Shown here piece after piece: positions 14,923-29,843 of a DNA stretch of 64,000 nt. Both the position numbers and the translations under genes were made by a program. The stretch comes from Actinomycetota bacterium (GTDB lineage: Bacteria > Actinomycetota > CADDZG01 > WHSQ01), in contig DASQLQ010000175.1 in the NCBI GenBank assembly GCA_035629935.1, positions 3,606 to 67,605 of the forward strand. The letters are read 5' to 3'. Position 1 is the first letter of the stretch. Each line of letters opens with the position of its first letter. The notes beneath the pieces were generated by a model, which was given only the letters and a program-made list of their open reading frames with translations, was not told where the DNA came from and did not search any database.

Positions 14923-15546
14923 ATGCCGTTCCGCCGGCCATCACCTCGGCTGATCAGCCGCGTGCTCACGGGCGCGGCGATCGTCCTTGCCCTCGCGGGT
15001 ATCGGGGTCGTCGCTTATCCGTTCGCTACCGATCTCTGGGCGGCCCGGATCCAACGGGGCCTGGCCGGAGACCTGGCCGCCAAAGCCGTCGACTACGAAG
15101 CCGGCAGAGTGAAAGTCGGCGAGCCTTTGACGCAACTCGAGATCCCACGCCTGGGTGTCGACGTTGTTGTCGTTGAAGGAACGACTCTCTCCGCGCTGCA
15201 AGCAGGAGCAGGGCACTATCCGAAGACGCCTCTGCCCGGTGAGAAGGGGAACGTCGCCATCGCCGGTCACCGCACGACATACGGCAAACCGTTCAACCGG
15301 ATGGACGAGCTCCAAGAGGGCGACCGCGTGATCTTGACGACGCCGCTCGAACGGCACGTCTACGAGATCGAGGGCCAACCGCGCGTCGTCGAATTGGATG
15401 ACTGGTCCGTGATCAACCGTTATCCCAAGCGAGGTTCCTACCTGACCCTCACCTCTTGCCACCCCGAGGGAAGTGCCGACTATCGGATCGTGGTCCGAGC
15501 AAATCTGATCCAGTCCACCGATGTCGTTGCGGAGGCTGCTCGATGA
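14923..15546 (+). CDS. srtE: class E sortase
   Basis: 207 aa; N-terminal TM; active-site His (IAGHRTTYG), TLTSCHP Cys motif, conserved Arg (RIVVRA). Confidence 0.85.
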   Translation: MPFRRPSPRLISRVLTGAAIVLALAGIGVVAYPFATDLWAARIQRGLAGDLAAKAVDYEAGRVKVGEPLTQLEIPRLGVDVVVVEGTTLSALQAGAGHYPKTPLPGEKGNVAIAGHRTTYGKPFNRMDELQEGDRVILTTPLERHVYEIEGQPRVVELDDWSVINRYPKRGSYLTLTSCHPEGSADYRIVVRANLIQSTDVVAEAAR

Positions 15547-16595: not shown

Positions 16596-17080
16596 ATAAG
16601 TTCAAACCCGGCGACCACTTCCACGACCTCGAGAAGTGGGAGGAACGTCGACCCGAGGGGCCCCATATCTGGCGCACGCTCGGCTACAACAGAACACTCT
16701 GGGAGCCGGGACGTCAGGTGATCGAGTGGAAGGCAACCGAGGATTACTCGTTCCCCATCATGTCCGGACACATCGTCCACGGAGGGATGGTCTCGACGAT
16801 CCTCGACACGGCGATGGGTGGAGCGTGCTGGACGCTCTTGAACAACGATGAGGCATTCCTGACGTCCAACCTCAACGTCGAGTTCTTCCGGGCCACCCGC
16901 CCGGGCCTGCTACGTGCCGAAGGTCGCGTCGTAAGTCGAACGAAGCGCGCCATTTTCTGCGCCGCCGATCTATTCGATGAGGACGGCAAGCACACGGCCG
17001 GCGCCCGTTGCACACAGATCGTCCTCCCGTCCGAAACCGCGGGAAGACCCTGGCATGGTAAGGACGAGAAACCGGAATAA
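16592..17080 (+). CDS. PaaI/hotdog-fold thioesterase
   Basis: GTG start overlapping the upstream stop; HGGMVSTILDTAMG motif typical of PaaI-type thioesterases. Confidence 0.7.
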   Translation: MNKFKPGDHFHDLEKWEERRPEGPHIWRTLGYNRTLWEPGRQVIEWKATEDYSFPIMSGHIVHGGMVSTILDTAMGGACWTLLNNDEAFLTSNLNVEFFRATRPGLLRAEGRVVSRTKRAIFCAADLFDEDGKHTAGARCTQIVLPSETAGRPWHGKDEKPE

Positions 17081-17136: not shown

Positions 17137-17592
17137 ATGCCCACCGAAGTCAGCGTCGAAGAGCTCAAGAGCCTCAGTGGCGAGAAGGATCTCGGGACCA
17201 GTGACTGGCACCGCGTCGAGCAGAAGCACATCGACCTGTTCGCCGATGCAACCGGCGACCACCAGTGGATCCACGTGGATCAGGAGATGGCGAAGCAGGG
17301 ACCGTTCGGCCAGACCATCGCCCACGGTTACCTGTCTCTTTCACTGTTACCCATGTTGATGTCTCAAGTCATGTCGGTCACGGGCGCAAAGATGGGCATC
17401 AACTACGGCACCGACAAGGTGCGCTTCACGAACCCCGTTCCATCGGGATCGGACGTGAGACTCAAGGCCAAGCTCCTGTCCGCGCAACCGAAGGGCGACG
17501 GGCTTCTCTACAAGGTCGGCGTCGAGGTCGAGATCAAGGATCAGGAGAAGCCGGCGATGGTAGGCGAGGTTCTCTACCTGGTCTTTGCCTGA
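17137..17592 (+). CDS. MaoC-like (R)-specific enoyl-CoA hydratase/dehydratase
   Basis: 151 aa; DxNPIH-like motif (GDHQWIHVD), IAHGYL hotdog motif. Confidence 0.85.
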   Translation: MPTEVSVEELKSLSGEKDLGTSDWHRVEQKHIDLFADATGDHQWIHVDQEMAKQGPFGQTIAHGYLSLSLLPMLMSQVMSVTGAKMGINYGTDKVRFTNPVPSGSDVRLKAKLLSAQPKGDGLLYKVGVEVEIKDQEKPAMVGEVLYLVFA

Positions 17593-18754
17593 GGAGAACC
17601 CGCGTCCCGAAAGCCAGCGCCGCGCCGGCGCAGAGTACTGCCGGTAGTCCGTAGCCCACGCCGAACCCGTAACTGTTGGCGATCAGGCCCACCAGGTAGG
17701 TGCCGGCGCCACCTCCGATGTCGAAGAAAACCGTGAACGTTGCGAGAGCGGCTCCTCGTTCGTGATCGCCTACGCGATCAGCCGTGAGAGCGAGCAACGC
17801 CGGGAAGAGAACGGCGAACCCCGCGCTGTAAGCGGCAACCCCAAGATAAGCGGCCCAGGGAAACTGGAAAACGGCGAGAGTAGTCATCCCCACCGTCGCT
17901 CCGATGATGCCCGGCAGCGCAACGCTCACGCGCCCGTGTCGGTCTGCCCACCGGCGGCTCAACAAGCGGATCGCAAGGATCGTGAGCGAGAAAGTGATGT
18001 AAAGACCCGCTGAGGAGCTGAGCCCGATCGATCGCGCGTAGAGCGGCGAGAACGCAGTGATCGCCGTGTATCCGGTGGCCGCACACATGACCACGAGCCC
18101 GGGCCCCAACGCCGCACCGTGAAGTCCGAAGCGAGGATGCACAACATCCGCGTGGGGTGGGTGGGGAACCAATGTCTCGGGAAGCGAGAGAGTGATGGCG
18201 AACGCGACGACAGATAAGACGCTTGCCGTGACCCAAACGCTTCCGAACCCGATCTGCGTCGCGAGCCACTCCCCGAGTGCAGGCCCGGCCGCGAAACCGA
18301 TGTAGAGGAAAAGGCTGAACAACGTCACGGTCTCCGCGCGTCGTCCCGGTGGACTCATATCGGTGGCCATCGTGGCCGCGCCCGTATAGAAAGCGGCCCC
18401 CACTCCTCCACGAACGACGCTGAGAAGGACGATCGCCCAGACCGACCCGGCAGCGAAGTACAGCACCGACAACACCGCAGCCACCGATGTGGCCGCCAAC
18501 AGGGCCGGGCGTCGGCCGACTCGATCCAACGCGACCCCGATGAAAGGACGGGCGAGCACCGCAGCAGGGAAGAAGGCTGCCGTCGCCACCCCTACAACCG
18601 CTCGCGAACCTCCGAGAACGTCATGAACGTAAAGAGGGATCGCCGACATGAACATGCCCATCGCCACGAAGTGAAAGAGGGTCGCGGAGCAGAGGCGCGC
18701 CAGACGCGCTCGGTCCAGAGACTCTGAAGCACCGGCTCGGTTCGTCACGAGCAT
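17534..18754 (-). CDS. MFS transporter
   Basis: 406 aa; 12 predicted TMs; DRVGRRP loop motif; 3' end overlaps maoC by 59 nt (convergent). Confidence 0.8.
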   Translation of the reverse strand: MLVTNRAGASESLDRARLARLCSATLFHFVAMGMFMSAIPLYVHDVLGGSRAVVGVATAAFFPAAVLARPFIGVALDRVGRRPALLAATSVAAVLSVLYFAAGSVWAIVLLSVVRGGVGAAFYTGAATMATDMSPPGRRAETVTLFSLFLYIGFAAGPALGEWLATQIGFGSVWVTASVLSVVAFAITLSLPETLVPHPPHADVVHPRFGLHGAALGPGLVVMCAATGYTAITAFSPLYARSIGLSSSAGLYITFSLTILAIRLLSRRWADRHGRVSVALPGIIGATVGMTTLAVFQFPWAAYLGVAAYSAGFAVLFPALLALTADRVGDHERGAALATFTVFFDIGGGAGTYLVGLIANSYGFGVGYGLPAVLCAGAALAFGTRVLLRQRPGREPRLPSPASPDP

Positions 18755-18792: not shown

Positions 18793-19701
18793 ATGATGAC
18801 TGCAGGCAGATCGGGCACCGTTAAGACCGTCGACATCGACGGCCCCATCAACTACGTGGACTTCGGCGGCGACGGTCCCGAGATGATCCTTGTCCATGGG
18901 CTCGGCGGATCCGTTCAGAACTGGTTCGCCGTCGCACCCGGTTTGGCCGAGAACTATCGCGTCACCGCCGTTGATCTCGTCGGTTTCGGCCGCACACCGC
19001 GTCCCGAAGGTCGATCGGCCAAGGTCAGGGACAACCGGCTCGTGCTCGATCGATTCGTCGACGAGGTAGCGGGCGGCTCGTCCATCCTGGTCGGCAACTC
19101 GATGGGCGGAGCCATCTCGATCCTCGAAGCCGCGCAGGAACCGGACAAGGTCGCAGCGTTGGTGTTGGTCGATCCGGCGGTCCCGTACCCCGCCGGGCAG
19201 GAAGCCGATCCGGTCGTCGCGATGACGTTCGGCACCTACATGATGGACAACGCCGAAGAGCTGGTGACCGCCTATCTCACGCAAGTGGGCCCCGAAGCCG
19301 CGGTCCGGACGACGATGGAGCTCTGTTGCGTCGATGCCGACCGCGTCCCGGCCGAGGTGCTTGACGCGCAGATCGAGTTGATGAAAGAACGATCGGAGAT
19401 GGAGTGGGCCAACGGTTCGATGGTCGAGGCCGCGCGTTCATTGCTCGAGTTGAACGCGAATGAAGACGACTTCTTCGCGGCGGTGAAGGCGATCACAGCC
19501 CCTACCCTTCTCGTTCACGGCGACAGCGACCGGCTGATCCCGCTGACGGCCGCGCAACAGTTAGCGAACATCCGCCCCGACTGGCGCTTCGAGGTCTTCG
19601 CCGACACCGGCCACGTCCCCCAACTGGAGACCCCCGAGAGGTTCCTCTCGGTTGTCGGCGGCTGGCTCGAGACCGTCCTAACGAAAGAAACGGTCGGCTA
19701 G
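18793..19701 (+). CDS. alpha/beta hydrolase
   Basis: 302 aa; HGLGGS oxyanion region, GNSMGG nucleophile elbow, C-terminal GH. Confidence 0.85.
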   Translation: MMTAGRSGTVKTVDIDGPINYVDFGGDGPEMILVHGLGGSVQNWFAVAPGLAENYRVTAVDLVGFGRTPRPEGRSAKVRDNRLVLDRFVDEVAGGSSILVGNSMGGAISILEAAQEPDKVAALVLVDPAVPYPAGQEADPVVAMTFGTYMMDNAEELVTAYLTQVGPEAAVRTTMELCCVDADRVPAEVLDAQIELMKERSEMEWANGSMVEAARSLLELNANEDDFFAAVKAITAPTLLVHGDSDRLIPLTAAQQLANIRPDWRFEVFADTGHVPQLETPERFLSVVGGWLETVLTKETVG

Positions 19702-19705
19702 GCGC

Positions 19706-20953
19706 TCAGCTGCGCTTGATGTCCTTCCACGGCACACCCTTGTCGGCCGCGGGATCGCGCGGCAGACCAAGGATCCGCTCCGCGAGCTGATTCTTGAGGA
19801 TCTCCGTCGTGCCCCCTTCGATCGAATAGCCGCGCGCTCGCAAGAACGCCCGGGCACGGGCTTCGGCCCCCTTGTCATCGGGAAGCCAAGCGATCGCCCC
19901 CGGACCCGCTGCATTCATCGCGAACGAGGTCTGTCGCTGGTTCAACTCGGCATTGAAGACCTTGCCCACGCCACCCTCGGCACCGGGTGATGCTCCGACA
20001 CGCCGGGCGGCCGCAGCACGGAACGCCGTCATCTCCTTAACCTCGCGCTCGACATGGAAGCGCGCCACGCTCTGGCGTACCAAACGATCGTCGCGGTGAG
20101 GGATCGAGTGAACGAACATCTTCCAGGGATCTTTCCGGGCGCCGCCCATGAAAGCCTCGGGGCTGGTGGACAACCCGGATAGAGCCACGCGCTCGTTCAT
20201 CAACGTCGTGCGGGCTATCTCCCAACCTTGACCAACCTCGCCGACGCGGTTGGCGTCGGGGATGCGCAGACCGTCGAAGTACACCTCGTTGAACTCCGAA
20301 GCACCGGTTATCTGGCGGAGTGGCCGGACCTCGACACCTTCGGCTTTCATCGGACAGATGAAATACGTGAGGCCTTCGTGCTTCGGGAGACTCGGATCGG
20401 TTCGAGCTACCAGCATCCCGAACTGCGCCCACTCGGCGATCGACGTCCAGACCTTCTGACCCTTGATGACCCACTCGTCTCCGTCCTTCTCGGCGCGGGT
20501 CGCGAGCGAAGCCAGGTCGGAGCCGGCCCCCGGCTCGGAGAACAGCTGGCACCAAACCTCTTCGCTGGTGAGAATCTTGGAGAGATATCGCTCCTTCTGC
20601 GCATCCGACGCGTGCTCGATCAACGTCGGCCCGGCGAGCCCTATACCGAGGATGTTGATCCCGAACAGCGGAAGCCGGAGACGAGCCAGCTCCTCGCGGA
20701 CCACGTTCTGCATCCACACCTTGCCCGACAGACCGCCGTACTCCTTCGGCCATAGGGGGGCCGCGTAACCGGCCGCGCCGATCGTGCGATTCCAATCCAT
20801 AACGTCGAAGTGCGACCACGCAGCCTCGAACGCGGTTTCATCGCCCTTCTCGAGCGCTTCGATCCACCCATCGGGAACGTTCGCCTTGACCCAGGACAAG
20901 AACTGTTGACGGAACTCGGCCTGCTCCGGCGTGTCTTCGATCCGCCACCGCAT
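19706..20953 (-). CDS. acyl-CoA dehydrogenase (catalytic-Glu-containing subunit)
   Basis: 415 aa; ACAD fold motifs; C-terminal SIEGGTTEI keeps the catalytic Glu position. Confidence 0.9.
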   Translation of the reverse strand: MRWRIEDTPEQAEFRQQFLSWVKANVPDGWIEALEKGDETAFEAAWSHFDVMDWNRTIGAAGYAAPLWPKEYGGLSGKVWMQNVVREELARLRLPLFGINILGIGLAGPTLIEHASDAQKERYLSKILTSEEVWCQLFSEPGAGSDLASLATRAEKDGDEWVIKGQKVWTSIAEWAQFGMLVARTDPSLPKHEGLTYFICPMKAEGVEVRPLRQITGASEFNEVYFDGLRIPDANRVGEVGQGWEIARTTLMNERVALSGLSTSPEAFMGGARKDPWKMFVHSIPHRDDRLVRQSVARFHVEREVKEMTAFRAAAARRVGASPGAEGGVGKVFNAELNQRQTSFAMNAAGPGAIAWLPDDKGAEARARAFLRARGYSIEGGTTEILKNQLAERILGLPRDPAADKGVPWKDIKRS

Positions 20954-22086
20954 CAGTTATCACCCCCGATGTCCGTCAAGCGGGCTAAGACGTCCCGGTG
21001 ATAGTCACCGTCGCCGAGATAGATCTCAGACGACTTCGCTCTGCGGAAGTACAGATGCACGTCGTGCTCCCAGGTGAACCCGATGCCGCCGAGCACCTGG
21101 ATCGTCTTTCCCGCCACATCGAAGAACGCTTCCGAGCAATAGGACTTGGCCAGCGAAGCGGCAACCGGTAGTTCGCTTTCGTCTTCAGACACTGCCCACG
21201 CCGAGTAGTACGCAGCAGACTTCGCCATCTCGACTTCGATGAGCATCTCGGCGCACTTGTGCTTGACCGCTTGGAACGATCCGATCGGTCGTCCGAACTG
21301 GACTCGCGTGTTCGCGTGCTCCGTGGCCGTGTCCAAGCACCACTGCGCCCCGCCGACCATCTCGGCGGCGAGGCCCACGGCCGCCTGCTGCAACGTGCGC
21401 TCGAGGGCGGCGGCCCCGCCGCCGGCCTGGCCCAACAACGTGGCTGGTGTCGACGAGAAATCGACCTTGGCCTGCTTCCGCGACATGTCGAGCGTATCGA
21501 GCGGCGTTTTCGTCAGCCCATCCGCATCGGCGTCGACAAGGAACAATTCGATGTCATCACCCAACCGAGCAGCCACGACCAGCACGGTCGCGGTGTGGCC
21601 GTCGAGGACGTACATCTTCGTTCCGTTCAGCGCGTACCCGCCGTCCTTCTGTGTAGCGGCAAGCGTTATCCCAGTGGCATCCCAGCGCCCCGACTCCTCG
21701 GTGAATGCGAGCGTAGCGCGCGTCGATCCGTCCGCAAGCTTGGGCAACAGATCCTTTCTCTGTTCCTCGGTGCCCGCATTCAGGACCGCTTCGGCACCGA
21801 GCACGACGGACGAGAAGAAGGGCGCCGCCAGGTTGGCTCGCCCCATCTCTTCCAGAAGCACCCCAAGCTCGGTGAACGTGTAGCCGGCACCCCCGTACTC
21901 CTCGGGGATGGCGATCCCCATCCATCCAAGCTCGGACATCTGCTTCCAGGTCGCTTCATCGAACCCCTCGGTCGACTCCATCGCGGAGCGGATCGCCTCC
22001 GAGCCGGAGTTCTCCTGTAGGAACCTCTTGGCGGAAGCCCGTAGCTCCTGCTGTTCATCGGTGAAGACTCCAGGTGTATTCATCAA
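20953..22086 (-). CDS. acyl-CoA dehydrogenase family protein (lacks Glu at the MCAD-type catalytic position)
   Basis: 377 aa; ACAD fold; position equivalent to IYEGT reads IYLGD; 1-nt overlap with the downstream ACAD gene. Confidence 0.85.
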   Translation of the reverse strand: MMNTPGVFTDEQQELRASAKRFLQENSGSEAIRSAMESTEGFDEATWKQMSELGWMGIAIPEEYGGAGYTFTELGVLLEEMGRANLAAPFFSSVVLGAEAVLNAGTEEQRKDLLPKLADGSTRATLAFTEESGRWDATGITLAATQKDGGYALNGTKMYVLDGHTATVLVVAARLGDDIELFLVDADADGLTKTPLDTLDMSRKQAKVDFSSTPATLLGQAGGGAAALERTLQQAAVGLAAEMVGGAQWCLDTATEHANTRVQFGRPIGSFQAVKHKCAEMLIEVEMAKSAAYYSAWAVSEDESELPVAASLAKSYCSEAFFDVAGKTIQVLGGIGFTWEHDVHLYFRRAKSSEIYLGDGDYHRDVLARLTDIGGDN

Positions 22087-22103
22087 ATGAAATTACCAGG
22101 GAG

Positions 22104-22928
22104 CTAAGTGTCGAAGTTGAGATCGGACTGGTGATGGGCTCGGCCATCGCCCAACGAAGGTGGAGCGATACCTGCTGCTCCTTCGACACGAGGCCCCGGC
22201 ACCCCTCGGAACTCGTAGAGCTCGCACGTTCTGCCCGGTTGGCAGACGAATATCTGACCGGTGCCGTTCGAAGTAGCTATCTGGACCACCGCAGTGGCCA
22301 CATCCTCCGGCTGTAAGAGGGGGAAGTCGTTCCGGCGGAACAGCGGTACCGCCCCCTGGAGCATGGGCGTCTCGACGAATCCGGGGCAGATCGCGTTGAT
22401 CCGGATATTCCGCGGAGCCAGCTGCTGGGCGACCGAGCGAACGAATCCCACTACAGCGTGTTTGGTTAGTCCGTAAACCGGATCGGTGGGATACGGCATC
22501 AGACCCGCGAGGGAAGCGGTCGCGATGATCTGACCCCCTTCGCTCATCGACTGGACGCATGCCTTCGCCCCGAACACCACCCCGCCGACGTTGATCCCCC
22601 AGGCACGTTGGAACCCCTGCACGTCCAGCTCCACCAGATCGACATCACGTTCCACGACGCCCGCGTTCAGATGGGCGATGTCGAGTCGGCCGAGTTCAGC
22701 TCGCGCAGATCGAACGGCTGCCGCTATCTGTTCCGGGTCCGATACGTCCGCTGCAACGAACAATCCATCAACTTCATCCGCAGCCGACTTGCCGCCGGAC
22801 TCGTCGAGGTCCACCACCGCTACCCGTGCACCTTCGGCCGACATGCGCCGAGCCACACTCAGGCCGATGCCCGAGGCGGCCCCGGTCACGAGCGCGACTT
22901 TGCCGGCGAACTGGCTCATCTCATCCAC
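22104..22928 (-). CDS. short-chain dehydrogenase/reductase (SDR)
   Basis: 274 aa; VTGAASGIG Rossmann motif; YGLTKHAV catalytic motif. Confidence 0.85.
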   Translation of the reverse strand: MDEMSQFAGKVALVTGAASGIGLSVARRMSAEGARVAVVDLDESGGKSAADEVDGLFVAADVSDPEQIAAAVRSARAELGRLDIAHLNAGVVERDVDLVELDVQGFQRAWGINVGGVVFGAKACVQSMSEGGQIIATASLAGLMPYPTDPVYGLTKHAVVGFVRSVAQQLAPRNIRINAICPGFVETPMLQGAVPLFRRNDFPLLQPEDVATAVVQIATSNGTGQIFVCQPGRTCELYEFRGVPGPRVEGAAGIAPPSLGDGRAHHQSDLNFDT

Positions 22929-23907
22929 CGAACAATCTGCGTGGGTTATCGGTCAGGATCGAATCGAACGTCGCCCTGTCTACCCCCGCGGCCTCCAGCT
23001 TCGGCCAAAAGTCGGTGAACAGGTAGTCGTGCGGACGACCGACCATCTGCTCGCGCACCCACGGTTCGATCTGATCGAACGTTTCTTCCATGCCCGCAGG
23101 TATCGGATAAGGGAACTTGTGCGAGCGAAGACAGCACATGTGGTCCTGGCTGAGGCACAAGCGCTCTTGATGCCCGGCCTCCAGCATCCCCTTGACCAGT
23201 GAAACGCGGTTCTCTTCGGGCGCGAGCACCTCGAAACCAACCCGATCGACGCCGGCGAATGAGCCCTGCTCGGCGATCTTGACGAGCTGGGTTGCATCGG
23301 TCGCCTGATCCTGATGGCCGATCAGACAGCGAGATAACTCGACGCCTTCATCGGCCAGGATCTCTTGCTGCACGTCCCATCCGTTCGAGTTCTCGCAGTG
23401 CGTGATCACGCTCAGCCCCGAATCCTTTGCCGCGCGTGCGGCGGCTCGAGCCACCTTCTTCTCGAGCTCGGTAGGCGGGTCGCCGGTCGCGATCTTGACC
23501 ACTCCGGGTTTGATGCCCGTGTCACCGATCCCATTCGATATCTCGTCCATGTAGAACTCATGGATCTCATCGATGCTGCGGAGCCGCCAGTAATAGGGGA
23601 TACCGATGTGCTCGTGATAAAAGCCGGTCGAGCAGACGAGCTGCATCCCGGCGCGCTCGGCAACCTCTGCCAGCATCTCCGGATCGCGGCCGAGGTCGAT
23701 CGGACATGGATCCACCCATGTCTTGATGCCAAAGGCTTGGGTTTGTTTCATCCGTTCGACTGCCACACTGATGCAACGTGACCGCTCGAACGTGTCGTTC
23801 GGATCGAGCACGTCGCCGGGATAAGAGATGTAGATGTGCTCGTGCACCAGCGTGGGGCCGAGCTCCGACGTGTCGATCGGCCCGAGCACCGTCTGAAGGG
23901 TCGCCAT
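22921..23907 (-). CDS. phosphotriesterase-like (PTE/PLL) amidohydrolase, probable lactonase
   Basis: 328 aa; binuclear metal ligands VHEHI, VKIATG (Lys), ITHC, IGH, LSQDH. Confidence 0.8.
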   Translation of the reverse strand: MATLQTVLGPIDTSELGPTLVHEHIYISYPGDVLDPNDTFERSRCISVAVERMKQTQAFGIKTWVDPCPIDLGRDPEMLAEVAERAGMQLVCSTGFYHEHIGIPYYWRLRSIDEIHEFYMDEISNGIGDTGIKPGVVKIATGDPPTELEKKVARAAARAAKDSGLSVITHCENSNGWDVQQEILADEGVELSRCLIGHQDQATDATQLVKIAEQGSFAGVDRVGFEVLAPEENRVSLVKGMLEAGHQERLCLSQDHMCCLRSHKFPYPIPAGMEETFDQIEPWVREQMVGRPHDYLFTDFWPKLEAAGVDRATFDSILTDNPRRLFGG

Positions 23908-23941
23908 CCGCCCGAAACTACAGCCCGTTTAGAGTCACCAC

Positions 23942-25015
23942 ATGCTCGAGAAGACGAAGGCGGCGATCGTCGAAGGCGCTGATCCATCGGTGGTCGGTCC
24001 GTATCTTGCCGAACATCTCGGCGACGAGTCCTGGAACACCGTTTCCGTCGAGCTCATCTCCGGAGGCAAATCGAACCTCACCTACCTCGTGACGTCGGGC
24101 GCCGGCGAAGTCATCCTTCGGCGCCCTCCCCTCGGCCACGTACTGCCTACCGCGCACGACATGACCAGGGAGTTCACCGTCCTCAGCGGCCTAAGTGACA
24201 CGGACGTCCCCACCCCCCGGCCCATCCACCTCTGTACCGATCCGGACGTGCTCGGCGTGACGTTCTATGTGATGGAGCGCATGAAAGGTCACATCGTGCG
24301 CAACGAATTCCCACCCGGGTACGCGGACACTCCCGAACAGAAACGTCTCATCGGCGAGGGACTCGTCGACACACTGGTCCGGCTGCACCGTGTGGACTGG
24401 AAGGCGGTCGGGCTCGGCGAGTTCGGTCACCCCGAGGGATTCATGGCCCGGCAGATCCGGCGTTGGAAGCAGCAATGGGAGAAGTCGGTCACGCGACCGC
24501 TCGAGATCATGGATCAATTGATCTCCCAACTCGAGCAGAACCTCCCGGTGTCTCCCTCTCCGACCATCGTGCATGGGGACTTCCGTTTGGACAACGCGAT
24601 CCTCGACGCGACCGATCCCGGCAAAGTCGTGGCTGTTCTCGACTGGGAGATGTCGACGATCGGCGACCCCCTTGCGGATCTAGGCCTGATGCTTTGTTAC
24701 TGGCCGCAACAGGACGATAACGACGAGTTCAAGCGTTCGTTCTCGGGCATCACCGCGACGGCCGCACCTGGGTTCCCCTCGCGCGACAGTGTGCTGGAGC
24801 AGTACGCGCGCCGGTCGGGCCGCGACGTGTCGCAGGTCTACTACTACTGGGCATTCGGCTTCTTCAAGCTCGCGGTGATCCTCGAAGGGATCCACGCGCG
24901 GTTCTTGCAAGGAAAGACATTGGGAGAAGGCTTCGAAGGCATCGGCGAACGGGTTCCACCGCTCGTGATGCTGGGGTTATGGGTACTCGACCGCAAAGAG
25001 GTTTCTGCCATCTAA
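23942..25015 (+). CDS. APH-type phosphotransferase (ACAD10/11 N-terminal kinase-like)
   Basis: 357 aa; ISGGKSNLTY, HGDFRLDN catalytic loop, LDWEMSTIGDPLADL. Confidence 0.85.
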   Translation: MLEKTKAAIVEGADPSVVGPYLAEHLGDESWNTVSVELISGGKSNLTYLVTSGAGEVILRRPPLGHVLPTAHDMTREFTVLSGLSDTDVPTPRPIHLCTDPDVLGVTFYVMERMKGHIVRNEFPPGYADTPEQKRLIGEGLVDTLVRLHRVDWKAVGLGEFGHPEGFMARQIRRWKQQWEKSVTRPLEIMDQLISQLEQNLPVSPSPTIVHGDFRLDNAILDATDPGKVVAVLDWEMSTIGDPLADLGLMLCYWPQQDDNDEFKRSFSGITATAAPGFPSRDSVLEQYARRSGRDVSQVYYYWAFGFFKLAVILEGIHARFLQGKTLGEGFEGIGERVPPLVMLGLWVLDRKEVSAI

Positions 25016-25024
25016 GGAGGCGTC

Positions 25025-26239
25025 GTGGATTTCGAACACAGTAGGAAGTCGCAGGAGTTGCAAGAGAAGCTGCTCGACTTCATGGACAACCACATCTATC
25101 CGAACGAGCGCACCTACGTCGATCAGATGATGGCCCAGGAGGACGTCCACGTGATGCCGCCGGTCATGGAGCAGCTGAAGAAAGAGGCCCGCAGCCGCGG
25201 TCTTTGGAATCTCTTTCTGCCGAACCCGGAGCACGGCGCGGGGCTGAACAACCTCGACTACGCGCCACTGGCCGAGATCATGGGACGAAGCCCGATCGCA
25301 TCCGAAGCCACGAACTGCGCGGCCCCCGACACCGGCAACATGGAGATCCTCGCCGAGTACGGCAACCAGGAGCAGAAGGAGAAGTGGCTGAAGCCGCTCC
25401 TCGAAGGCGAGATCCGATCGTGTTTCAGCATGACCGAGCCGGAGGTTGCGTCGAGCGACGCGACCAACCTCGCTACCCGCATCGAGCGAGTGGGCGACGA
25501 GTACGTCGTCAATGGTCGCAAGTGGTGGTCCTCGGGAGCGGCCGATCCACGCTGCAAGCTCAGTTTGTTGCTCGGGCGTAGCGACTTCTCAGAACCGCAA
25601 GACCGCACGGCCCGGTACCTTCAGCACAGTCTCGTGCTGATCCCGATGGACACGCCGGGCGTGAAGGTCCTTCGCACCCTTCCGGTATTCGGTTTCGATG
25701 CCGGCCACGGTCACTGCGAGATCGTCTTCGAAGACGTTCACATCCCGCTTGCGAACCTACTCGGCGAAGAGGGCGGCGGGTTCGTCATCGGGCAGGCACG
25801 TTTGGGCCCGGGCCGGATCCATCACTGCATGCGTGCTATCGGGATGGCGGAGCGGGCCCTCGAGCTGATGTGCGAGCGCGCCCAGTCACGCGTTGCGTTC
25901 GGCATCCCGCTGTCGAAGCAGGGTGTCATCCGGGACTGGATCGCGGAGGCTCGCATCAGGATCGAGCAAGCGCGCCTGTTGACTCTCAAGGCCGCATGGA
26001 TGATGGATCGCGCCGGCAACAGGGAAGCTCGTATCGAGATCTCGGCGATCAAGGTGGCTGCGGCGGAGCTTGCTACATGGGTCATCGACCGTGCCATACA
26101 GGTTCATGGGGGGGCAGGCGTCTCGAACGACACCCCGCTGGCGATGATGTACGCACATGCCAGGACCCTTCACATCGTCGACGGGGCAGACGAGGTCCAC
26201 AAGATGCTGATCTCCCGCGAAGAGCTAAAGAAGTACTAG
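25025..26239 (+). CDS. ACAD10/ACAD11-like acyl-CoA dehydrogenase
   Basis: 404 aa; GTG after AAGGAGG; [14 protein letters not shown] motif; C-terminal IVDGADEVH (Asp in place of the usual catalytic Glu). Confidence 0.9.
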
Positions 26240-26673
26240 CCGAACTTGTAGATCAGGTGCTGCTCGGTGCGGCCCCCGGGAACGAAGCCGGACTTCTCCA
26301 GCACCCGGATCGAAGCCGCATTGTGCTCGGCGACGTAAGCGTGGAGCGGGCGTTGTTCAACAAGTGCGACGAACCGGGGTAGCACAGACGAAGCTATCCC
26401 CTTGCCCCAATAGGGCTTGCCGATCCAATACCCGATCTCCTGCCCACTATCGGTTGCCCAACTGACGAGGTTGCCGGCTACGGCGCCGCCGACCACGACC
26501 GTCTGCATGAACACAGTTGGGTCCGTCCGTATCTTCTTCAGGTGTGCGAAGTAATCCGCTTCGCTCCGCGGAGGAAAGGCAGCCATCGCTGCCGCATCCG
26601 GGTCCGCTTGCTGCTCGTAGAAGATCGGGACGTCGGTGTCGACGACGTCGCGCAGTGAAGGTTCGTCGCTCAA
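26236..26673 (-). CDS. GNAT family N-acetyltransferase
   Basis: 145 aa; acetyl-CoA binding region YWGKGIAS; [13 protein letters not shown]. Confidence 0.8.
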
Positions 26674-26676
26674 CGG

Positions 26677-28380
26677 CTAGTAACGAGATTGGCCGAACAT
26701 CTCGCCCAGCCTGATCGCCACCTTCGCGTCGCCCAACAACTGGATCCTGCCCTCCATCATCGCGAGGGCGCCGTTCTCCTCCCCGCTGGCGATGCGCAGG
26801 TACGTCGGCGCGCCCATCTGTACGGTCACGGCCGGCGAATCGGCGTGGCCCGGCACGAGCTCAGCGAGCTCCCCGTCAACATGCACGAAGTACTCGTGAG
26901 AAGACCCACCCCCCTCAACGGTCAAGACGTACTGGATGTCTCCATTGAACCCACGCGTGTATTGCGGGTCGAACCCGGCAACCATCCCGTGCAGGATGAG
27001 CTCGAGGACCTGGGTGGTGCGCACCATCTCGAGCAGCTCCGCATCCGTTTTCCCGCGCAGTTGGTCGAGGAACTGCTCCTGCGGTGAAGCGGTGTCCGCG
27101 CGAGGTGCCAGAGTCCAGGTGCGACCCGCGCTCCTCTCACCATCCGGCCGCACGACGTAGTCCTCATCAGCTTCGCGGGCAGGCTCGCGTCGAGCCATAG
27201 CGGCTTCGATCGCGGGAGCCAGTCGTTCCATCTTCTTCTTCTCTGCGGCTTCGGCCCGATCCGCGTAGATCGGAAGGACTTCCTTGCCGAAGAGCTCCAG
27301 TGACTCACAGACCTCTTCGTGCACGTTGTTCCCGCACTGAGCAACGAAGATGACTTGGTCCACCCCGGCCGCCTCGTAGCGATCGATCAGATCCATGATC
27401 TGCTTCGGCGTACCTACCGCCCCTCGCATCGACCCCAGACCTTGTTCGAGCAGCTTGACACCGAGGGTGTCCCCTTCTGCCCGGATGATCTCTCGGGCGA
27501 AACCGAACTTGCCTCGATGCTGTTGGAACTCATTCCACACGTTCGTGCGACCCGGTTGGTGCTCGCCGAAGACGTAGTAGTGCGCCAGCGAATAGCCGAA
27601 GAAGTGCCCGCCGTCGATCCCGCGCTGGATCGCAGTCTCTTCGTCCTCATGACAGAAGAGTGGAACAACGACGGCCAGGTTGGGATTCACGTCGAATCCC
27701 GCCGGCACGCATCTGTCCGACGAGAGGATCGCGTAGTAGTCGTCAACCCATTCCTTCGCATCCTCGGGCTCGACGAACGAGAACGACAACGCGCCGATCC
27801 CCTTTTCGGCCGCCATCAAGATCGTCTCCCGACGCGAGCACGCAACCCATAAGGGCGGATGTGGCTTCTGTTGGGGCTTCGGGACGACGTTGCGTTGCGG
27901 AACCGAGATGAAGTCTCCGTCGTGCCCGGCGAAGGGCTCCTCGACGAACATCCGCGTGATCACATCGAGCGCCTCTGTCCACTGCGCTCGCTTCTGCTCC
28001 CTTTCCACGCCGAAACCGCCGAGCTCCATCTGGGAAGACGCCTCTCCGGTTCCGAAGTCGACGCGCCCGTTGGATACGAGATCCAGGGTCGCGACACGTT
28101 CGGCGATGCGCGCGGGATGGTTGAAGGCTGGAGGCAACTGAACGATCCCATGCCCTAGACGGATGCGCTCGGTGCGCTGACTCGCGGCCGCAAGGAACAC
28201 CTCGGGCGCGCTCGAATGCGAGTACTCCTCGAGGTAATGGTGTTCGACTTCCCAGACGTGGTCGAACCCAAGACGGTCGGCGAGCTCGATCTGGTCCAGC
28301 GCGTTGCGCAACAACTCGCCTTCGGCACCCTCGCGCCACGGTCGCGGCATCTGGTGCTCGTAGAACAGACCAAACCGCAT
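26677..28380 (-). CDS. luciferase-like (LLM class) flavin-dependent oxidoreductase fused to a C-terminal SCP2 sterol-carrier-like domain
   Basis: Start moved to MRFGLFYEHQ (ATG 28380); LLM TIM-barrel motifs over about 400 aa; C-terminal about 110 aa SCP2-like (ALAMMEGRIQLLGDAKVAIRLGEMF). Confidence 0.8.
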   Translation of the reverse strand: MRFGLFYEHQMPRPWREGAEGELLRNALDQIELADRLGFDHVWEVEHHYLEEYSHSSAPEVFLAAASQRTERIRLGHGIVQLPPAFNHPARIAERVATLDLVSNGRVDFGTGEASSQMELGGFGVEREQKRAQWTEALDVITRMFVEEPFAGHDGDFISVPQRNVVPKPQQKPHPPLWVACSRRETILMAAEKGIGALSFSFVEPEDAKEWVDDYYAILSSDRCVPAGFDVNPNLAVVVPLFCHEDEETAIQRGIDGGHFFGYSLAHYYVFGEHQPGRTNVWNEFQQHRGKFGFAREIIRAEGDTLGVKLLEQGLGSMRGAVGTPKQIMDLIDRYEAAGVDQVIFVAQCGNNVHEEVCESLELFGKEVLPIYADRAEAAEKKKMERLAPAIEAAMARREPAREADEDYVVRPDGERSAGRTWTLAPRADTASPQEQFLDQLRGKTDAELLEMVRTTQVLELILHGMVAGFDPQYTRGFNGDIQYVLTVEGGGSSHEYFVHVDGELAELVPGHADSPAVTVQMGAPTYLRIASGEENGALAMMEGRIQLLGDAKVAIRLGEMFGQSRY

Positions 28381-28417
28381 GCGTTTCCTCCCGTTTTGCC
28401 CGTTTCGGGTGGTAAGG

Positions 28418-28432
28418 GTTACTGTTAGTAAC
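28418..28432. promoter_or_regulatory. candidate TetR operator (inverted repeat GTTAC-N5-GTAAC)
   Basis: GTTACTGTTAGTAAC in the 52-bp divergent region between the LLM-SCP2 and tetR genes, ending 1 nt before the tetR ATG. Confidence 0.5.
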
Positions 28433-29170
28433 ATGCCGCGGGCGGAGGGGTCAATCGGAAATGCGACCGGTGAGCAGCGCGCGGGCCGTCGTCAGGAACT
28501 CCTCGATGCCGCCCACCGAGTGATCCGGCGGGACGGGCCCACCGCCTCGATGGACGACGTGGCAGCCGAAGCCGGAATCACGAAGCCGATCCTGTATCGA
28601 CACTTCGGCAACAAGGGCGGACTCTACAAAGCGCTCGCCGAGCGCTACGTGTGGGCCCTGCTCACCGAACGACGACGGATCGTCCAAGACCAGACCGACC
28701 CGCACCTCCGTCTTCGAGCGACGATCGATGCCTATCTCGCCTTCGTGGAACAAGATCCTCAGGTCTACCGATTCCTTGCGCAACACGCCTTCTACGAACG
28801 ACCCGAAGCCCAGGCCGCCCTCACCGACTACATCCGGACCCTCGCCGGCGATGTCGCGGCCGAGTTGGACGAAGGGCTCAAGCGTGCCGGCGGGAACCGA
28901 GCGGCCGCCCAACCGTGGGCGTTCGGGATCATCGGTCTTGTGCAAATGGCGACCGACTGGTGGCTCGAGGACCGGTCGATGTCCCGCGCCGAATTCGTGG
29001 ATCACCTAACGAACCTCTTATGGACCGGGATGAGTCGGCCTGAAATTGGAAGAGCACGGGGGATAGGCTCTGCGCCCGAGGAAGCCAAGTCTTTGGAAGC
29101 CAAGTCCGAACGCCGAACGTCTCGACGTTCGGCGGTAGAAAAGAAGGTCGGGGGGCCTTTACGTGGGTGA
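28433..29170 (+). CDS. TetR family transcriptional regulator
   Basis: HTH MDDVAAEAGITKPILYRHFGNKGGLY; divergent from the LLM-SCP2 gene; low-complexity C-terminal tail reads through a REP-like repeat. Confidence 0.85.
   Translation: MPRAEGSIGNATGEQRAGRRQELLDAAHRVIRRDGPTASMDDVAAEAGITKPILYRHFGNKGGLYKALAERYVWALLTERRRIVQDQTDPHLRLRATIDAYLAFVEQDPQVYRFLAQHAFYERPEAQAALTDYIRTLAGDVAAELDEGLKRAGGNRAAAQPWAFGIIGLVQMATDWWLEDRSMSRAEFVDHLTNLLWTGMSRPEIGRARGIGSAPEEAKSLEAKSERRTSRRSAVEKKVGGPLRG
29106..29136. repeat. REP-like structured repeat, copy D (inside the tetR 3' coding tail)
   Basis: CCGAACGCC flank + perfect stem CGCCGAACGT / CTCG / ACGTTCGGCG. Confidence 0.65.
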
Positions 29171-29843
29171 GACGGCTCTGAAAGAGGCTGTCGTCGAAGA
29201 GTCGCCGGGGGAAGCGAAACCGGGACGACGGCTTCGGCTTCCCTGGCCGCGCAAGGAACGCGCTGCCACCGTCGCCATGGAGAAGGGCGACGACACCGTC
29301 GAGGAAGTCGAGCCTTCACCGCTGGCTTACAGGACCTTCTCGCCCAAGCTGGCTCCCGCGGCCACTGCGATCGGCGGAGCACTCGCCATCCTCGGCGGCC
29401 TCGGTGCATGGGTGCGCGCAACCCAGGTGGAAACCGAAGGGCTCCCCGCCGAACAAGTTGCCGTCCAGATGGGCTACAACGATGCCGAGGGTTTGGCGAT
29501 CGCCGTTTTCGGTGGCCTCGCGGTGCTGACAGCTCTTCTCTGGATCCGGAAGCGGCCCTTGTTCAAAGTCGTCCCGGCGTTCGTCGTGAAACTCGTTCCA
29601 CTATTGCTGTCGTTGGCCATCGTCGGCCTCAGCGCGTGGCAACTGCCTCTGGTCGATCAAGCCGCGCAGGAGTTAGCACGGCAAGCGATCGAGGATGCGA
29701 ACTTCACTAATTTCCACGCGGGCCTGGGATGGGGCGCTTGGTGTTTGGTCGTCAGCGCGGTGGTGCTGTTTCTCGGGTGCGCCGTCGGAACCTTGAGAGA
29801 ACTGGACCTTCGGAGGGCAAAGAAAAGGGGGGCCGAGGGATGA
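29163..29843 (+). CDS. hypothetical 4-TM membrane protein
   Basis: 226 aa; GTG start overlapping the tetR stop (start uncertain, ATG 29277 possible); four hydrophobic helices, Trp-rich loops. Confidence 0.5.
   Translation: MGETALKEAVVEESPGEAKPGRRLRLPWPRKERAATVAMEKGDDTVEEVEPSPLAYRTFSPKLAPAATAIGGALAILGGLGAWVRATQVETEGLPAEQVAVQMGYNDAEGLAIAVFGGLAVLTALLWIRKRPLFKVVPAFVVKLVPLLLSLAIVGLSAWQLPLVDQAAQELARQAIEDANFTNFHAGLGWGAWCLVVSAVVLFLGCAVGTLRELDLRRAKKRGAEG

Follow-up and report, generated by a model that had tools for sequence, protein, structure and literature searches.

Does a lactonase-like hydrolase gene that lies back-to-back with genes for a small-molecule kinase and an acyl-CoA dehydrogenase (ACAD) supply that pair with its substrate? 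This question is raised by a locus in a 64,000-nucleotide stretch of DNA (contig DASQLQ010000175.1; the window) from an uncultured soil Acidimicrobiia-like actinobacterium. A first-pass annotation had read three open reading frames as a phosphotriesterase (PTE)-like lactonase, an APH kinase and an ACAD10/11-like dehydrogenase forming a candidate module for lactone catabolism. All three exist at exactly the coordinates that it gave, and Pfam searches recovered the expected families (PTE, 4.7e-62; APH, 5.3e-52; and three ACAD domains), with E-values well outside the range that chance would produce. The central features are:

22921-23907, minus strand: PTE-family lactonase-like hydrolase (PLL), 328 aa, heading a minus-strand operon
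23908-23941, no strand: divergent control region, 34 bp between the PLL and APH start codons
23942-25015, plus strand: APH-family small-molecule kinase, predicted 4-hydroxyacyl-CoA 4-kinase, 357 aa
25025-26239, plus strand: ACAD10/11/LvaC-type ACAD, predicted 4-phosphoacyl-CoA phosphate-eliminating enzyme, 404 aa

4-Hydroxy fatty acids enter beta-oxidation via a kinase and ACAD pair. Our working hypothesis, to which we assign a probability of roughly one half, is that the cluster turns gamma-lactones into ordinary beta-oxidation intermediates; 4-oxo and 4-hydroxy acids are probably also among its substrates. Opening of a gamma-lactone fits this pathway because its product would be exactly the 4-hydroxy acids that this class of kinase needs.

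The kinase and ACAD pair

ACAD11 is by far the nearest solved relative of both the kinase and the ACAD. The kinase matches PDB entries 9o56 (1.6e-84) and 3dxp (8e-59), aligns end to end (residues 20-348) with the kinase domain of mouse ACAD11 (8v3v; 1.8e-52) and contains both the catalytic loop H211-G-D213-x4-N218 and D234-W-E; on sequence grounds, it is predicted to be equivalent to LvaA and to the N-terminal domain of ACAD10/11. For the ACAD, the best PDB matches are ACAD11 structures (2wbi, human, 1.2e-128; 8v3u, 1.1e-125), and the next ACAD type follows at 1e-47. Both motifs highlighted in the first-pass annotation were located in its translation, the first spanning residues 135-148 and the second, DGADEVH, residues 386-392. 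Mutagenesis of mouse ACAD11 defines the essential residues of that enzyme (PMC12440821), and the window ACAD retains every one of them: R259, R264, H267-C-M-R270 and D386, which are the positions for phosphate binding and catalysis, align at identical spacing with mouse R626, R631, H634, R637 and D753. These matches bear out the earlier proposal that the pair is the split equivalent of mammalian ACAD10/ACAD11, with which both catalytic domains share full-length homology. The window proteins differ in being two polypeptides encoded by adjacent genes and in having no HAD domain, and nothing in the mammalian proteins corresponds to their lactonase-like genomic partner.

A parallel to Pseudomonas putida LvaA/LvaC had also been drawn, and it holds for the catalytic Asp and for the R...R..HCMR phosphate-binding helix of the ACAD. 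The lva operon encodes the LvaA kinase, LvaB, the LvaC ACAD, the LvaD short-chain-type oxidoreductase (SDR) and the LvaE CoA ligase. As in lva, a separate APH-type kinase adjoins an ACAD10/11-type ACAD, SDR and CoA ligase genes are nearby, and the predicted chemistry runs from 4-hydroxyacyl-CoA via 4-phosphoacyl-CoA to 2-enoyl-CoA. Unlike in lva, the window pair diverges from an operon that is headed by the PLL gene and includes a two-subunit ACAD, and the conserved set adds a MaoC hydratase, a thioesterase and an MFS transporter; with only 9 bp between the kinase stop and the ACAD start, a small LvaB-like gene could not fit. Split bacterial kinase/ACAD pairs have been demonstrated to run both reactions, and the mammalian kinase rejects 5-OH and 6-OH acids (PMC11342911). 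The window pair joins this known, biochemically validated kind, represented by LvaA/LvaC and the B. pseudomallei orthologues.

The lactonase-like hydrolase

The best solved relatives of the PLL are the Geobacillus lactonases GsP and GKL (1e-52), from the PLL group that includes Dr0930, followed by M. tuberculosis PPH (7e-47). Its AF2 model (pLDDT 90.8) is a TIM-barrel for which the G. kaustophilus lactonase GKL is the best fold match (TM 0.89-0.91 at 33-34% identity). The full binuclear metal set claimed earlier is indeed there (H22, H24, K138, H170, H198 and D255), and all six ligands are invariant across an alignment of 22 homologues. Y97, E99 and R222 correspond to Y99, E101 and R230 of GKL, D266 of GKL likewise has an equivalent, and residue 97 is a Tyr as opposed to the Trp of true phosphotriesterases. 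Unlike GKL and GsP, the window PLL belongs to a separate actinobacterial clade, falls in neither established PLL subgroup and aligns poorly over approximately residues 256-300, after beta-strand 8. Modelled fold and active-site residues thus support a lactonase-like assignment, in line with the family originally suggested. A signal peptide is absent from the PLL, which in the proposed pathway would most likely be cytoplasmic.

We also considered that this protein may not be a lactonase, acting on another ester or amide or on a phosphorylated by-product and filling the role of the histidine-phosphatase whose gene adjoins that of the kinase in D. radiodurans and P. citronellolis. The PTE family also includes non-lactonase members, the identity of the PLL to any characterised lactonase is only 33-34%, and all of its scores against NCBIfam equivalog profiles are far under the cut-offs. 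Moreover, other clusters pair the kinase with a phosphatase (PMC6692424). However, PLL homologues show no variation in the lactonase-type active site as a whole or in the Tyr and Arg that mark PLLs, and the top sequence and fold matches are lactonases. In addition, the equivalent position in Tsukamurella is occupied by an orthologue (2e-109) of M. tuberculosis PPH, a protein reported as a lactonase. A non-lactonase function therefore appears very unlikely.

Gene linkage in close and distant relatives

The three-gene unit initially proposed proved too narrow. The SDR, a two-ACAD pair, MaoC, thioesterase and CoA ligase genes belong to it, as do an MFS transporter and an alpha/beta hydrolase, and all of these had been overlooked. 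The surrounding features are:

11815-13479, plus strand: AMP-binding acyl-CoA synthetase, candidate CoA-activation enzyme (Pfam AMP-binding, 1.4e-74)
16373-17080, plus strand: 4HBT/PaaI-type thioesterase (Pfam 4HBT, 2.4e-14, residues 133-206)
17137-17592, plus strand: MaoC-type enoyl-CoA hydratase (Pfam MaoC, 8.2e-26), in the extended conserved set
17534-18754, minus strand: MFS transporter (Pfam MFS_1, 5.6e-47)
18793-19701, plus strand: alpha/beta-fold hydrolase (Pfam Abhydrolase_1, 2.2e-33)
19706-20953, minus strand: ACAD subunit, pimC-like large subunit (NCBIfam pimC_large, 3.8e-65, below cut-off)
20953-22086, minus strand: ACAD subunit, pimD/IpdE2-like (Pfam ACAD domains; best NCBIfam matches IpdE2 and pimD_small, both below cut-off), probable partner of the preceding gene, which it overlaps by 1 nt
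22104-22928, minus strand: SDR oxidoreductase (Pfam adh_short, 1.6e-49), its start overlapping the PLL stop by 8 nt
26677-28434, minus strand: luciferase-like monooxygenase-SCP2 fusion, LLM-SCP2 (Pfam Bac_luciferase, 6.9e-55, and SCP2)
28379-29170, plus strand: TetR-family regulator (Pfam TetR_N and TetR_C_32), divergent from LLM-SCP2 and a candidate regulator of the region

The extended cluster also contains patatin, phosphodiesterase and CoA-ligase genes. Because the thioesterase domain is confined to the C-terminal ~165 aa of its reading frame, the true start of that gene is probably later.

A neighbour-joining tree places the seven distinct closest PLL orthologues (the window together with L081, L161/L162, L163, L164/L165, L166 and L172; 69-79% identical to the window PLL) in a single clade. 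The APH gene is directly divergent from the PLL gene in 7/7, and the ACAD follows APH wherever the contig extends far enough. The 8-nt SDR/PLL overlap is identical in L163 and L172, the smaller ACAD gene (20953-22086) follows the SDR in L161, L163, L164, L166 and L172 (68-71% identity), and its partner is 78-83% identical across syntenic loci. Synteny extends to the thioesterase adjoining MaoC (L161, L163), the MFS gene (L161, L163, L166), the alpha/beta hydrolase (L161, L163), LLM-SCP2 (74-80% identity) and the TetR gene (L161, L166, L172); the CoA ligase, which in the window is 9.4 kb away from the PLL, is directly 3' of the thioesterase in L161. This 10-gene synteny inside the clade could reflect simple inheritance.

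Beyond these seven, L001 and L008 (PLLs 67% and 57% identical to that of the window) have an ACAD11-like gene directly divergent to the PLL while all other flanking genes differ, and the kinase is absent within 10 kb in both; an SDR orthologue (49%) sits behind the PLL in L008. In Tsukamurella tyrosinosolvens, the order is MaoC-APH-ACAD11L-ACAD-ACAD-PLL-FadD, with a PPH-type PLL (30% identical to that of the window) directly followed by the fatty-acid-CoA ligase. Its MaoC, directly upstream of APH, is 55% identical to that of the window, its counterparts of the 19706-20953 and 20953-22086 ACADs are 44% and 35% identical, its cluster also includes an MFS gene, and another alpha/beta hydrolase adjoins it. 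A lake actinobacterium (L041) has the order PLL-ACAD-ACAD-ECH-ACAD11-like-APH, with a PLL 43% identical to that of the window. The kinase/ACAD/MaoC/ACAD-pair core also occurs without a PLL, in Deinococcus, Methylobacterium, Nonomuraea and L169; in L169 an SDR orthologue (54%) is divergent to APH-ACAD, and in the ACAD11-like cluster of D. radiodurans MaoC (44% identical) is followed by a PaaI thioesterase.

In favor of the linkage, an ACAD11-like gene was present in the flanks of 0 of ~37 loci with PLLs less than 42% identical to that of the window. Elsewhere the partners are found apart: many PLLs at 52-66% identity have neither partner, and PPH-type PLLs in Nocardioides and one Acidimicrobiales MAG have unrelated contexts. 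In the sister PLL clade (59-64%), the genes found with the PLL are instead LLM-SCP2, TetR and one for a binding protein, and no kinase or ACAD is in reach; there, LLM-SCP2 (63-79% identical) is the direct divergent PLL partner (L083, L089, L090, L098/L003, L100, L103, L105 and L118) and the TetR gene directly follows the PLL. Among nine close ACAD11-like orthologues, four stand alone and one is accompanied by APH and SDR without a PLL. Co-conservation with the kinase/ACAD pair thus extends to all of the closest PLL orthologues and to distant PLLs in other lineages, but it is sporadic and clade-specific, neither universal nor family-wide. The first-pass annotation had named a lack of such co-conservation in related genomes as grounds for rejecting its proposal, and on this count the proposal was not refuted.

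This distribution raises the possibility that two separate modules share a lipid-catabolic island, the APH-ACAD pair having a general housekeeping function in the use of 4-hydroxy acids of whatever origin and the PLL-SDR-ACAD-ACAD operon serving another lactone, for example a delta- or epsilon-lactone that the neighbouring luciferase-like monooxygenase would make from a cyclic or branched ketone if it acted as a Baeyer-Villiger-type enzyme. Consistent with this arrangement, LLM-SCP2 is the commonest direct PLL partner in the sister clade and is near the PLL in the window clade too, ACAD11-like orthologues of ~80% identity are without a PLL in 5/9 loci, the two-ACAD pair resembles ring or side-chain ACADs (IpdE2, PimCD), with scores below family cut-offs, and generic lipid genes abound in the region. 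However, L001 and L008 keep the ACAD11-like gene beside the PLL despite their otherwise changed surroundings, and distant PLLs have been recruited to the kinase/ACAD/two-ACAD/MaoC set in Tsukamurella and L041. Furthermore, the two-ACAD pair accompanies ACAD11L in Nonomuraea even without a PLL, which ties the minus-strand operon to kinase/ACAD function. We therefore regard two independent modules as somewhat unlikely.

A candidate route for gamma-lactones and its precedents

In the gamma-lactone pathway that we favor, the PLL would open the lactone to a 4-hydroxy acid, an acyl-CoA synthetase (candidate, 11815-13479) would convert it to 4-hydroxyacyl-CoA, the APH kinase would phosphorylate the 4-hydroxyl group, and the ACAD11-like flavoenzyme would eliminate the phosphate to give 2-enoyl-CoA. 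The MaoC hydratase, SDR and two-subunit ACAD may carry out subsequent beta-oxidation-type steps; alternatively, the SDR may be LvaD-like and reduce 4-oxoacyl-CoA to 4-hydroxyacyl-CoA. Phosphorylation and elimination are predicted from strong homology to enzymes with demonstrated activity. Lactone opening is suggested by fold, active-site conservation and recurrent gene linkage, while we infer CoA activation, the later steps and the identity of the substrate. The recurrence of the linkage in unrelated lineages is suggestive of a full bacterial pathway for gamma-lactone consumption, though it falls short of proof. Overall, the computationally checkable parts of the original interpretation are supported.

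The first half of such a route has a precedent. In the Rhodococcus erythropolis qsd operon (qsdR, TetR; qsdA, PLL lactonase; qsdC/fadD, CoA ligase), a PLL and a CoA ligase form the established first half of gamma-lactone catabolism, and the 4-hydroxyacyl product is said only to undergo beta- or omega-oxidation, with no mention of a kinase or ACAD11-type enzyme (PMC3689677, PMC6262395). The proposed pathway resembles qsd in that a PLL comes first in lactone assimilation, followed by CoA activation, with a candidate TetR-type regulator, and the Tsukamurella cluster holds the same PLL-FadD pair; it differs in that an SDR rather than a ligase follows the window PLL, which is ~30% identical to PPH/QsdA-type enzymes. 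The first-pass annotation was aware of no description of the combination as a unit, and our literature search found no description of a PLL with a kinase/ACAD pair, the qsdA-qsdC operon being the nearest precedent. Because the PLL and CoA-ligase half is already known, only the link from the lactonase to the kinase/ACAD step appears to be new.

The same enzyme activities would be required if the PLL were a salvage or repair enzyme that reopens gamma-lactones formed, with release of CoA, by spontaneous cyclisation of 4-hydroxyacyl-CoA; in that case the pathway would be fed primarily by 4-hydroxy or 4-oxo acids, for instance from oxidised lipids via the patatin and phosphodiesterase genes nearby. 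The lability of 4-hydroxyacyl thioesters, which cyclise to gamma-lactones, is established chemistry and supports this scenario. So do the absence of a signal peptide, the back-to-back position with the kinase gene, the occurrence of the core without a PLL in four settings, which makes the PLL optional, and the patatin, phosphodiesterase and CoA-ligase genes of the extended cluster. Against it, the qsdA-qsdC operon enables Rhodococcus to grow on exogenous lactones, and the PLL-FadD pair of Tsukamurella resembles this operon; we consider a salvage role improbable.

Returning to the gamma-lactone pathway, the 34-bp gap reported between the divergent genes was confirmed as the spacing of their start codons. 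Because no more than 34 bp separate the divergent PLL-SDR-ACAD-ACAD and APH-ACAD operons, they are probably co-regulated. A TANNNT box (TAGAGT) sits 6 nt ahead of the APH ATG in the window, and L161, L163, L165 and L172 have boxes of this kind (TAGAGT, TAAAGT, TAATCT) 6-9 nt upstream of the conserved APH start. Their closeness to the start in the window and its relatives suggests that the APH mRNA may be leaderless.

The kinase/ACAD pair

The first-pass annotation had described three open reading frames, and Pfam searches confirmed all of them: a phosphotriesterase (PTE)-like gene and, divergent from it, genes for a kinase and an acyl-CoA dehydrogenase (ACAD).

Core genes of the window
22921-23907, minus strand: PTE-family protein, 328 aa (Pfam PTE, 4.7e-62)
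23942-25015, plus strand: APH-family kinase, 357 aa (Pfam APH, 5.3e-52)
25025-26239, plus strand: acyl-CoA dehydrogenase, 404 aa (Pfam, all three ACAD domains)

The ACAD motifs quoted in the annotation were likewise found, a 14-residue motif at residues 135-148 and DGADEVH at residues 386-392. The G+C content of the window is 61-65%, and its proteins have their closest homologues in metagenome bins of uncultured Actinomycetota and Acidimicrobiia.

As annotated, the start codons of the PTE-like and kinase genes are divergent with 34 bp between them (23908-23941). In the window and in the homologous loci L161, L163, L165, and L172, the kinase start is annotated inconsistently in database gene calls, although alignment of their spacers reveals a conserved GTG/ATG kinase start 6-9 nt 3' of a TANNNT box; therefore, we take the true spacer, as judged from this alignment, to be 15-34 bp. 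The kinase mRNA is probably leaderless, and the short spacer with its conserved TANNNT box suggests shared control of the divergent operons. A promoter and terminator scan of 19500-28600 with an E. coli-type model gave nothing useful.

The proposal that the kinase and the ACAD are the split equivalent of the two domains fused in mammalian ACAD10/11 was borne out by comparison with the PDB. The best matches of the ACAD are human and mouse ACAD11 (2wbi, 1.2e-128; 8v3u, 1.1e-125) and an M. abscessus homologue, while the best conventional ACAD match, the SCAD 2vig, reached only 1.1e-47. An Asp replaces the usual catalytic Glu, with D386 in VDGADEVH aligning with DGPDEVH of ACAD11 (mouse D753), and the phosphate-binding helix is present as R259-LGPG-R264-IH-H267-C-M-R270 with the spacing of mouse R626, R631, and H634-C-M-R637. 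Phosphate elimination by the mouse protein requires R626, H634, and R637 of the HCMR helix as well as the catalytic D753, and R631 positions the substrate (Rashan et al., PMC12440821); all ACAD11-like proteins compared have these five residues. Along its full length, the kinase aligns with the N-terminal kinase domain of mouse ACAD11 (8v3v, 1.8e-52; query 20-348, chain 24-352), and it also matches two stand-alone homologues from bacteria. It has the catalytic loop HxDxxxxN as H211-G-D213-FRLD-N218 and the metal-binding Asp motif as D234-W-E, with a presumed equivalent of the Asp mutated in the mouse enzyme. Each ACAD10 domain can be replaced in vitro by a separate B. pseudomallei protein (Paquay et al., PMC11342911). 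Because of this homology, the essential residues, and the in vitro activity of the split B. pseudomallei proteins, we assign the pair to a kind already validated in B. pseudomallei, namely a predicted 4-hydroxyacyl-CoA kinase and a predicted phosphate-eliminating 4-phosphoacyl-CoA ACAD; the latter is predicted to convert 4-phosphoacyl-CoA to 2-enoyl-CoA without conventional dehydrogenase activity.

The PTE-like protein and its gene cluster

The full binuclear metal ligand set that had been ascribed to the PTE-like protein is there: H22, H24, K138, H170, H198, and D255 (HxH, a carboxylatable Lys, two His, and Asp) are invariant among the 22 homologues in alignment A1. An active-site Tyr (SsoPox Y97, Y99 of the G. 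kaustophilus lactonase GKL) occupies the position of a Trp in bacterial PTE, and its partner is Arg (GKL R230). Here, Tyr97, Glu99, and Arg222 align with GKL Y99, E101, and R230, and both Y97 and R222 are invariant. The AlphaFold (AF2) model is a TIM barrel of the (beta/alpha)8 amidohydrolase fold (pLDDT 90.8, pTM 0.90), which best matches GKL structures in the PDB (TM 0.89-0.91 at 33-34% identity). The protein is nearly equidistant from PLL-B (Dr0930/GKL) and PLL-A (PPH/SsoPox/QsdA), with matches to GsP at 1e-52, PPH at 7e-47, and SsoPox at ~1e-44, and falls in a separate actinobacterial clade in a neighbour-joining tree. By all these computational criteria, it classifies as a PTE-family lactonase-like hydrolase (PLL) of an uncharacterised actinobacterial clade. 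Its residues and model suggest a lactonase, for which gamma-lactones, delta-lactones, and AHLs are candidate substrates; alternatively, this PTE-family protein may be no lactonase at all.

The three genes are real, but the three-gene unit of the first-pass annotation overlooked a minus-strand operon and further neighbours. The PLL gene heads this tight operon, in which the SDR gene starts 8 nt ahead of the PLL stop and precedes a pair of ACAD genes with a 1-nt overlap (20953-22086 and 19706-20953; best family matches pimD/IpdE2-like and pimC-like, respectively, both below cut-offs). Past the ACAD pair, Pfam identified alpha/beta hydrolase, MFS transporter, MaoC hydratase, and 4HBT thioesterase genes and, beyond a sortase/fn3 insertion, genes encoding acyl-CoA synthetase, patatin-like lipase, and phosphodiesterase. 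The opposite flank comprises a variable GNAT gene, the gene for a luciferase-like monooxygenase fused to SCP2 (LLM-SCP2), and TetR regulator and ABC transporter genes.

Further features of the cluster
13648-14904, plus strand: ORF with no Pfam match, upstream of the sortase gene; conserved
14923-16595, plus strand: sortase and fn3/Ig-domain surface-protein genes, between thioesterase and CoA ligase
26677-28434, minus strand: LLM-SCP2, luciferase-like monooxygenase with a C-terminal SCP2 lipid-binding domain; best PDB match 7bip, only 1.8e-31
29163-29843, plus strand: ORF with no Pfam match, in the TetR/binding-protein/permease transporter operon; also in L161, L166, and L172
31374-32840, plus strand: ORF with no Pfam match, in the same transporter operon; also in L161, L166, and L172

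The sortase/fn3 insertion recurs in L163 and is not there in L161, whose ligase gene directly adjoins that of the thioesterase. The GNAT gene (26236-26673) was rejected as a member of the unit, being absent or swapped in L161, L163, L166, and L172. The SDR, translationally coupled to PLL in the window, is also present in L008 and beside APH-ACAD in L169, where there is no PLL; it could be an LvaD-like 4-oxoacyl-CoA reductase or a 3-hydroxyacyl-CoA dehydrogenase. LLM-SCP2 is encoded at most three genes from PLL within the window clade and is the direct divergent partner of PLL across the sister clade (L083, L089, L090, L098/L003, L100, L103, L105, and L118); if it forms lactones by a Baeyer-Villiger-type reaction, its step would precede PLL. 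A second SCP2-tagged oxidative enzyme adjoins the PLL of L001, where a ribonucleotide-reductase-small-chain-like (R2-like di-metal oxidase) domain fused to SCP2 is encoded right after it (10986-12374, plus strand).

Conservation of the link between PLL and the pair

A genome scan and a metagenome scan supplied 160 PLL loci for comparison, to which targeted look-ups were added, and the window proteins were mapped onto these loci by tblastn. Our own greedy ORF calls and clustering of PLL neighbours were discarded for their many antisense artefacts in high-GC DNA, and neighbourhood conclusions are limited to those with tblastn, Pfam, or database gene-call support. An APH gene lies directly divergent from every PLL gene with any upstream sequence whose product is at least 69% identical to that of the window (L081, L161/L162, L163, L164/L165, L166, and L172). 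Long contigs carry LLM-SCP2 ... ACAD11-like-APH / PLL-SDR-ACAD-ACAD, then hydrolase, MFS, MaoC, and thioesterase genes, with local variants in which a carboxyltransferase or HAD gene is inserted or another gene replaces GNAT. In the neighbour-joining tree, the window-like PLLs with a divergent kinase form one clade, to which the PLL of L001 (67%) is sister, and that of L008 (57%) branches deeper. At both of these loci, an ACAD11-like gene (75-76% identical) is directly divergent to PLL, the other neighbours are unrelated, and there is no APH kinase gene within 10 kb of PLL. In the adjacent PLL clade (59-64%), the divergent partner is LLM-SCP2, followed by TetR and binding-protein genes. Many other PLLs of 52-66% identity, and almost all below 50%, lack either partner. 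The suggested co-conservation of PLL with the pair stands for the closest clade and for distant recurrences, and does not extend to the adjacent clade and most distant PLLs. PLL-APH proximity in Caulobacteraceae (L048, L080) was discounted as weak, with a TonB receptor gene in between and no ACAD11-like gene.

Starting instead from the ACAD, we placed nine ACAD11-like proteins, 79-82% identical to that of the window, on contigs. The full PLL arrangement was found in four of the nine loci (L161, L163, L166, and L172), one (L169) has SDR / APH-ACAD without PLL, and the remaining four orthologues stand alone among other lipid genes. Because five of these nine loci lack PLL, we conclude that the PLL link is far less widespread than the pair or the often solitary ACAD. 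PLL-free cores with an ACAD11-like gene, kinase, MaoC or crotonase, reductase, and often the ACAD pair occur in Deinococcus, Methylobacterium, Nonomuraea, and Streptomyces.

Several of these loci have features of their own. Besides L001 and L008, four other close ACAD11-like orthologues have no adjacent kinase gene; in those organisms, the kinase gene may lie elsewhere, or the ACAD may act without a kinase. In L167 (5412-7717) and L168 (11523-13828), a kinase-free ACAD11-like gene (81%) lies near SDR, sulfatase, and TetR genes and one for a type I Baeyer-Villiger/FMO-like monooxygenase, a further hint that ester- or lactone-forming oxygenases are linked with the ACAD11-like type. In the D. radiodurans ACAD11-like cluster (L174, NZ_OV024759.1), a histidine-phosphatase gene (9313-10026) directly 3' of the kinase gene, as also in P. 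citronellolis (PMC6692424), may serve proofreading or dephosphorylation of 4-phospho intermediates; no equivalent was seen in the window.

Among plasmids, a single record in the collection has ACAD11-like and PTE genes, 2.3 kb apart: Tsukamurella tyrosinosolvens NZ_LR134470.1. Its order is MaoC (55% identity to the window protein), APH (44%), ACAD11-like (57%), the ACAD pair (44% and 35%), PLL (30%), and FadD, after which come alpha/beta hydrolase, MFS transporter, and TetR genes; the PLL here is orthologous to M. tuberculosis PPH (2e-109). In L041, from a lake actinobacterium, PLL (43%), two ACADs, an enoyl-CoA hydratase, an ACAD11-like protein (39%; an HAMR variant of HCMR with the catalytic Asp kept), APH, and a Zn-dehydrogenase are encoded in this order on one strand. 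A 794-aa ORF there was rejected as an ACAD-kinase fusion; Pfam gives APH only, and the ACAD is encoded in a different frame. Because PPH-type PLLs of Nocardioides and an Acidimicrobiales bin have no ACAD11-like/kinase gene set in their neighbourhood, the link is recurrent but sporadic.

A rival reading is that the operons are mere neighbours in a lipid island and functionally separate, with PLL serving a lactone from the LLM-SCP2 enzyme, its divergent partner in the adjacent clade; L001, L008, Tsukamurella, and L041 weaken this reading. Neither chance nor inherited synteny alone easily accounts for three features: conservation throughout the closest clade, an ACAD-PLL adjacency kept while all else around it changes, and the entry of two other PLL lineages into the same gene set. 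These features fit a 4-hydroxyacyl-CoA module to which PLL is an optional front end.

A candidate gamma-lactone pathway

Our tentative working hypothesis, to which we give a probability of about 0.4, is that in Actinomycetota PLL lactonases and the ACAD10/11-type pair each make up half of a pathway dedicated to gamma-lactone assimilation, which was repeatedly assembled from different PLL lineages. PLL would open a gamma-lactone to the 4-hydroxy acid, a CoA ligase, encoded in the extended window cluster and directly after PLL in Tsukamurella, would form 4-hydroxyacyl-CoA, and the kinase and the ACAD would convert this to 4-phosphoacyl-CoA and then enoyl-CoA. These steps are chemically coherent, and the mammalian kinase accepts 4-OH acids and does not accept 5-OH or 6-OH acids (PMC11342911). 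Alternatively, PLL may serve not to import carbon but to salvage lactones into which 4-hydroxyacyl-CoA spontaneously turns.

Both the components and the initial half of the assimilation pathway are already known from the P. putida levulinate (lva) operon, ACAD10/11, and the Rhodococcus gamma-lactone (qsd) operon. The PLL-to-kinase/ACAD join appears to be undescribed, in agreement with the first-pass annotation; a full-text literature search found no paper that mentions a lactonase together with ACAD11 or a phosphotriesterase-like lactonase together with 4-hydroxyacyl-CoA, nor anything closer. Compared with lva, no ORF fits the 9-bp gap between the kinase stop (25015) and the ACAD start (25025), excluding an LvaB-like gene there; because P. 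citronellolis also lacks LvaB (PMC6692424), this gene does not define the wider family. LvaD is an SDR that reduces 4-oxoacyl-CoA, and the tightly linked SDR of the window is a candidate for this role. In qsd, PLL is directly followed by a CoA ligase gene with a divergent TetR gene, whereas in the window the SDR gene follows PLL and the ligase and TetR genes are 9.4 kb and 4.5 kb away; the Tsukamurella PLL-FadD pair does mirror Rhodococcus qsdA-qsdC.

It was not until 2024-2025 that ACAD10/11 was assigned the chemistry by which 4-hydroxy acids enter beta-oxidation, and the bacterial cases are mainly the levulinate operon; for PLL lactonases, the enzymology is well studied and the physiological substrates are debated. 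The recurrent genomic join yields a concrete pathway hypothesis, from gamma-lactone through 4-phosphoacyl-CoA to enoyl-CoA. If correct, it would complete the Rhodococcus-type pathway, whose downstream steps are missing because as published it is unspecific past ring opening and CoA activation (PMC3689677, PMC6262395), and it would argue for nutritional catabolism of gamma-lactones and 4-hydroxy acids, not quorum quenching, as the native role of many PLLs. The gene set has a cultured carrier, T. tyrosinosolvens NCTC13231 (EL451_RS24395-24425), and is a natural one for engineering growth on bio-based lactones such as gamma-valerolactone. Addition of a lactonase to P. putida reportedly permits growth on this compound.
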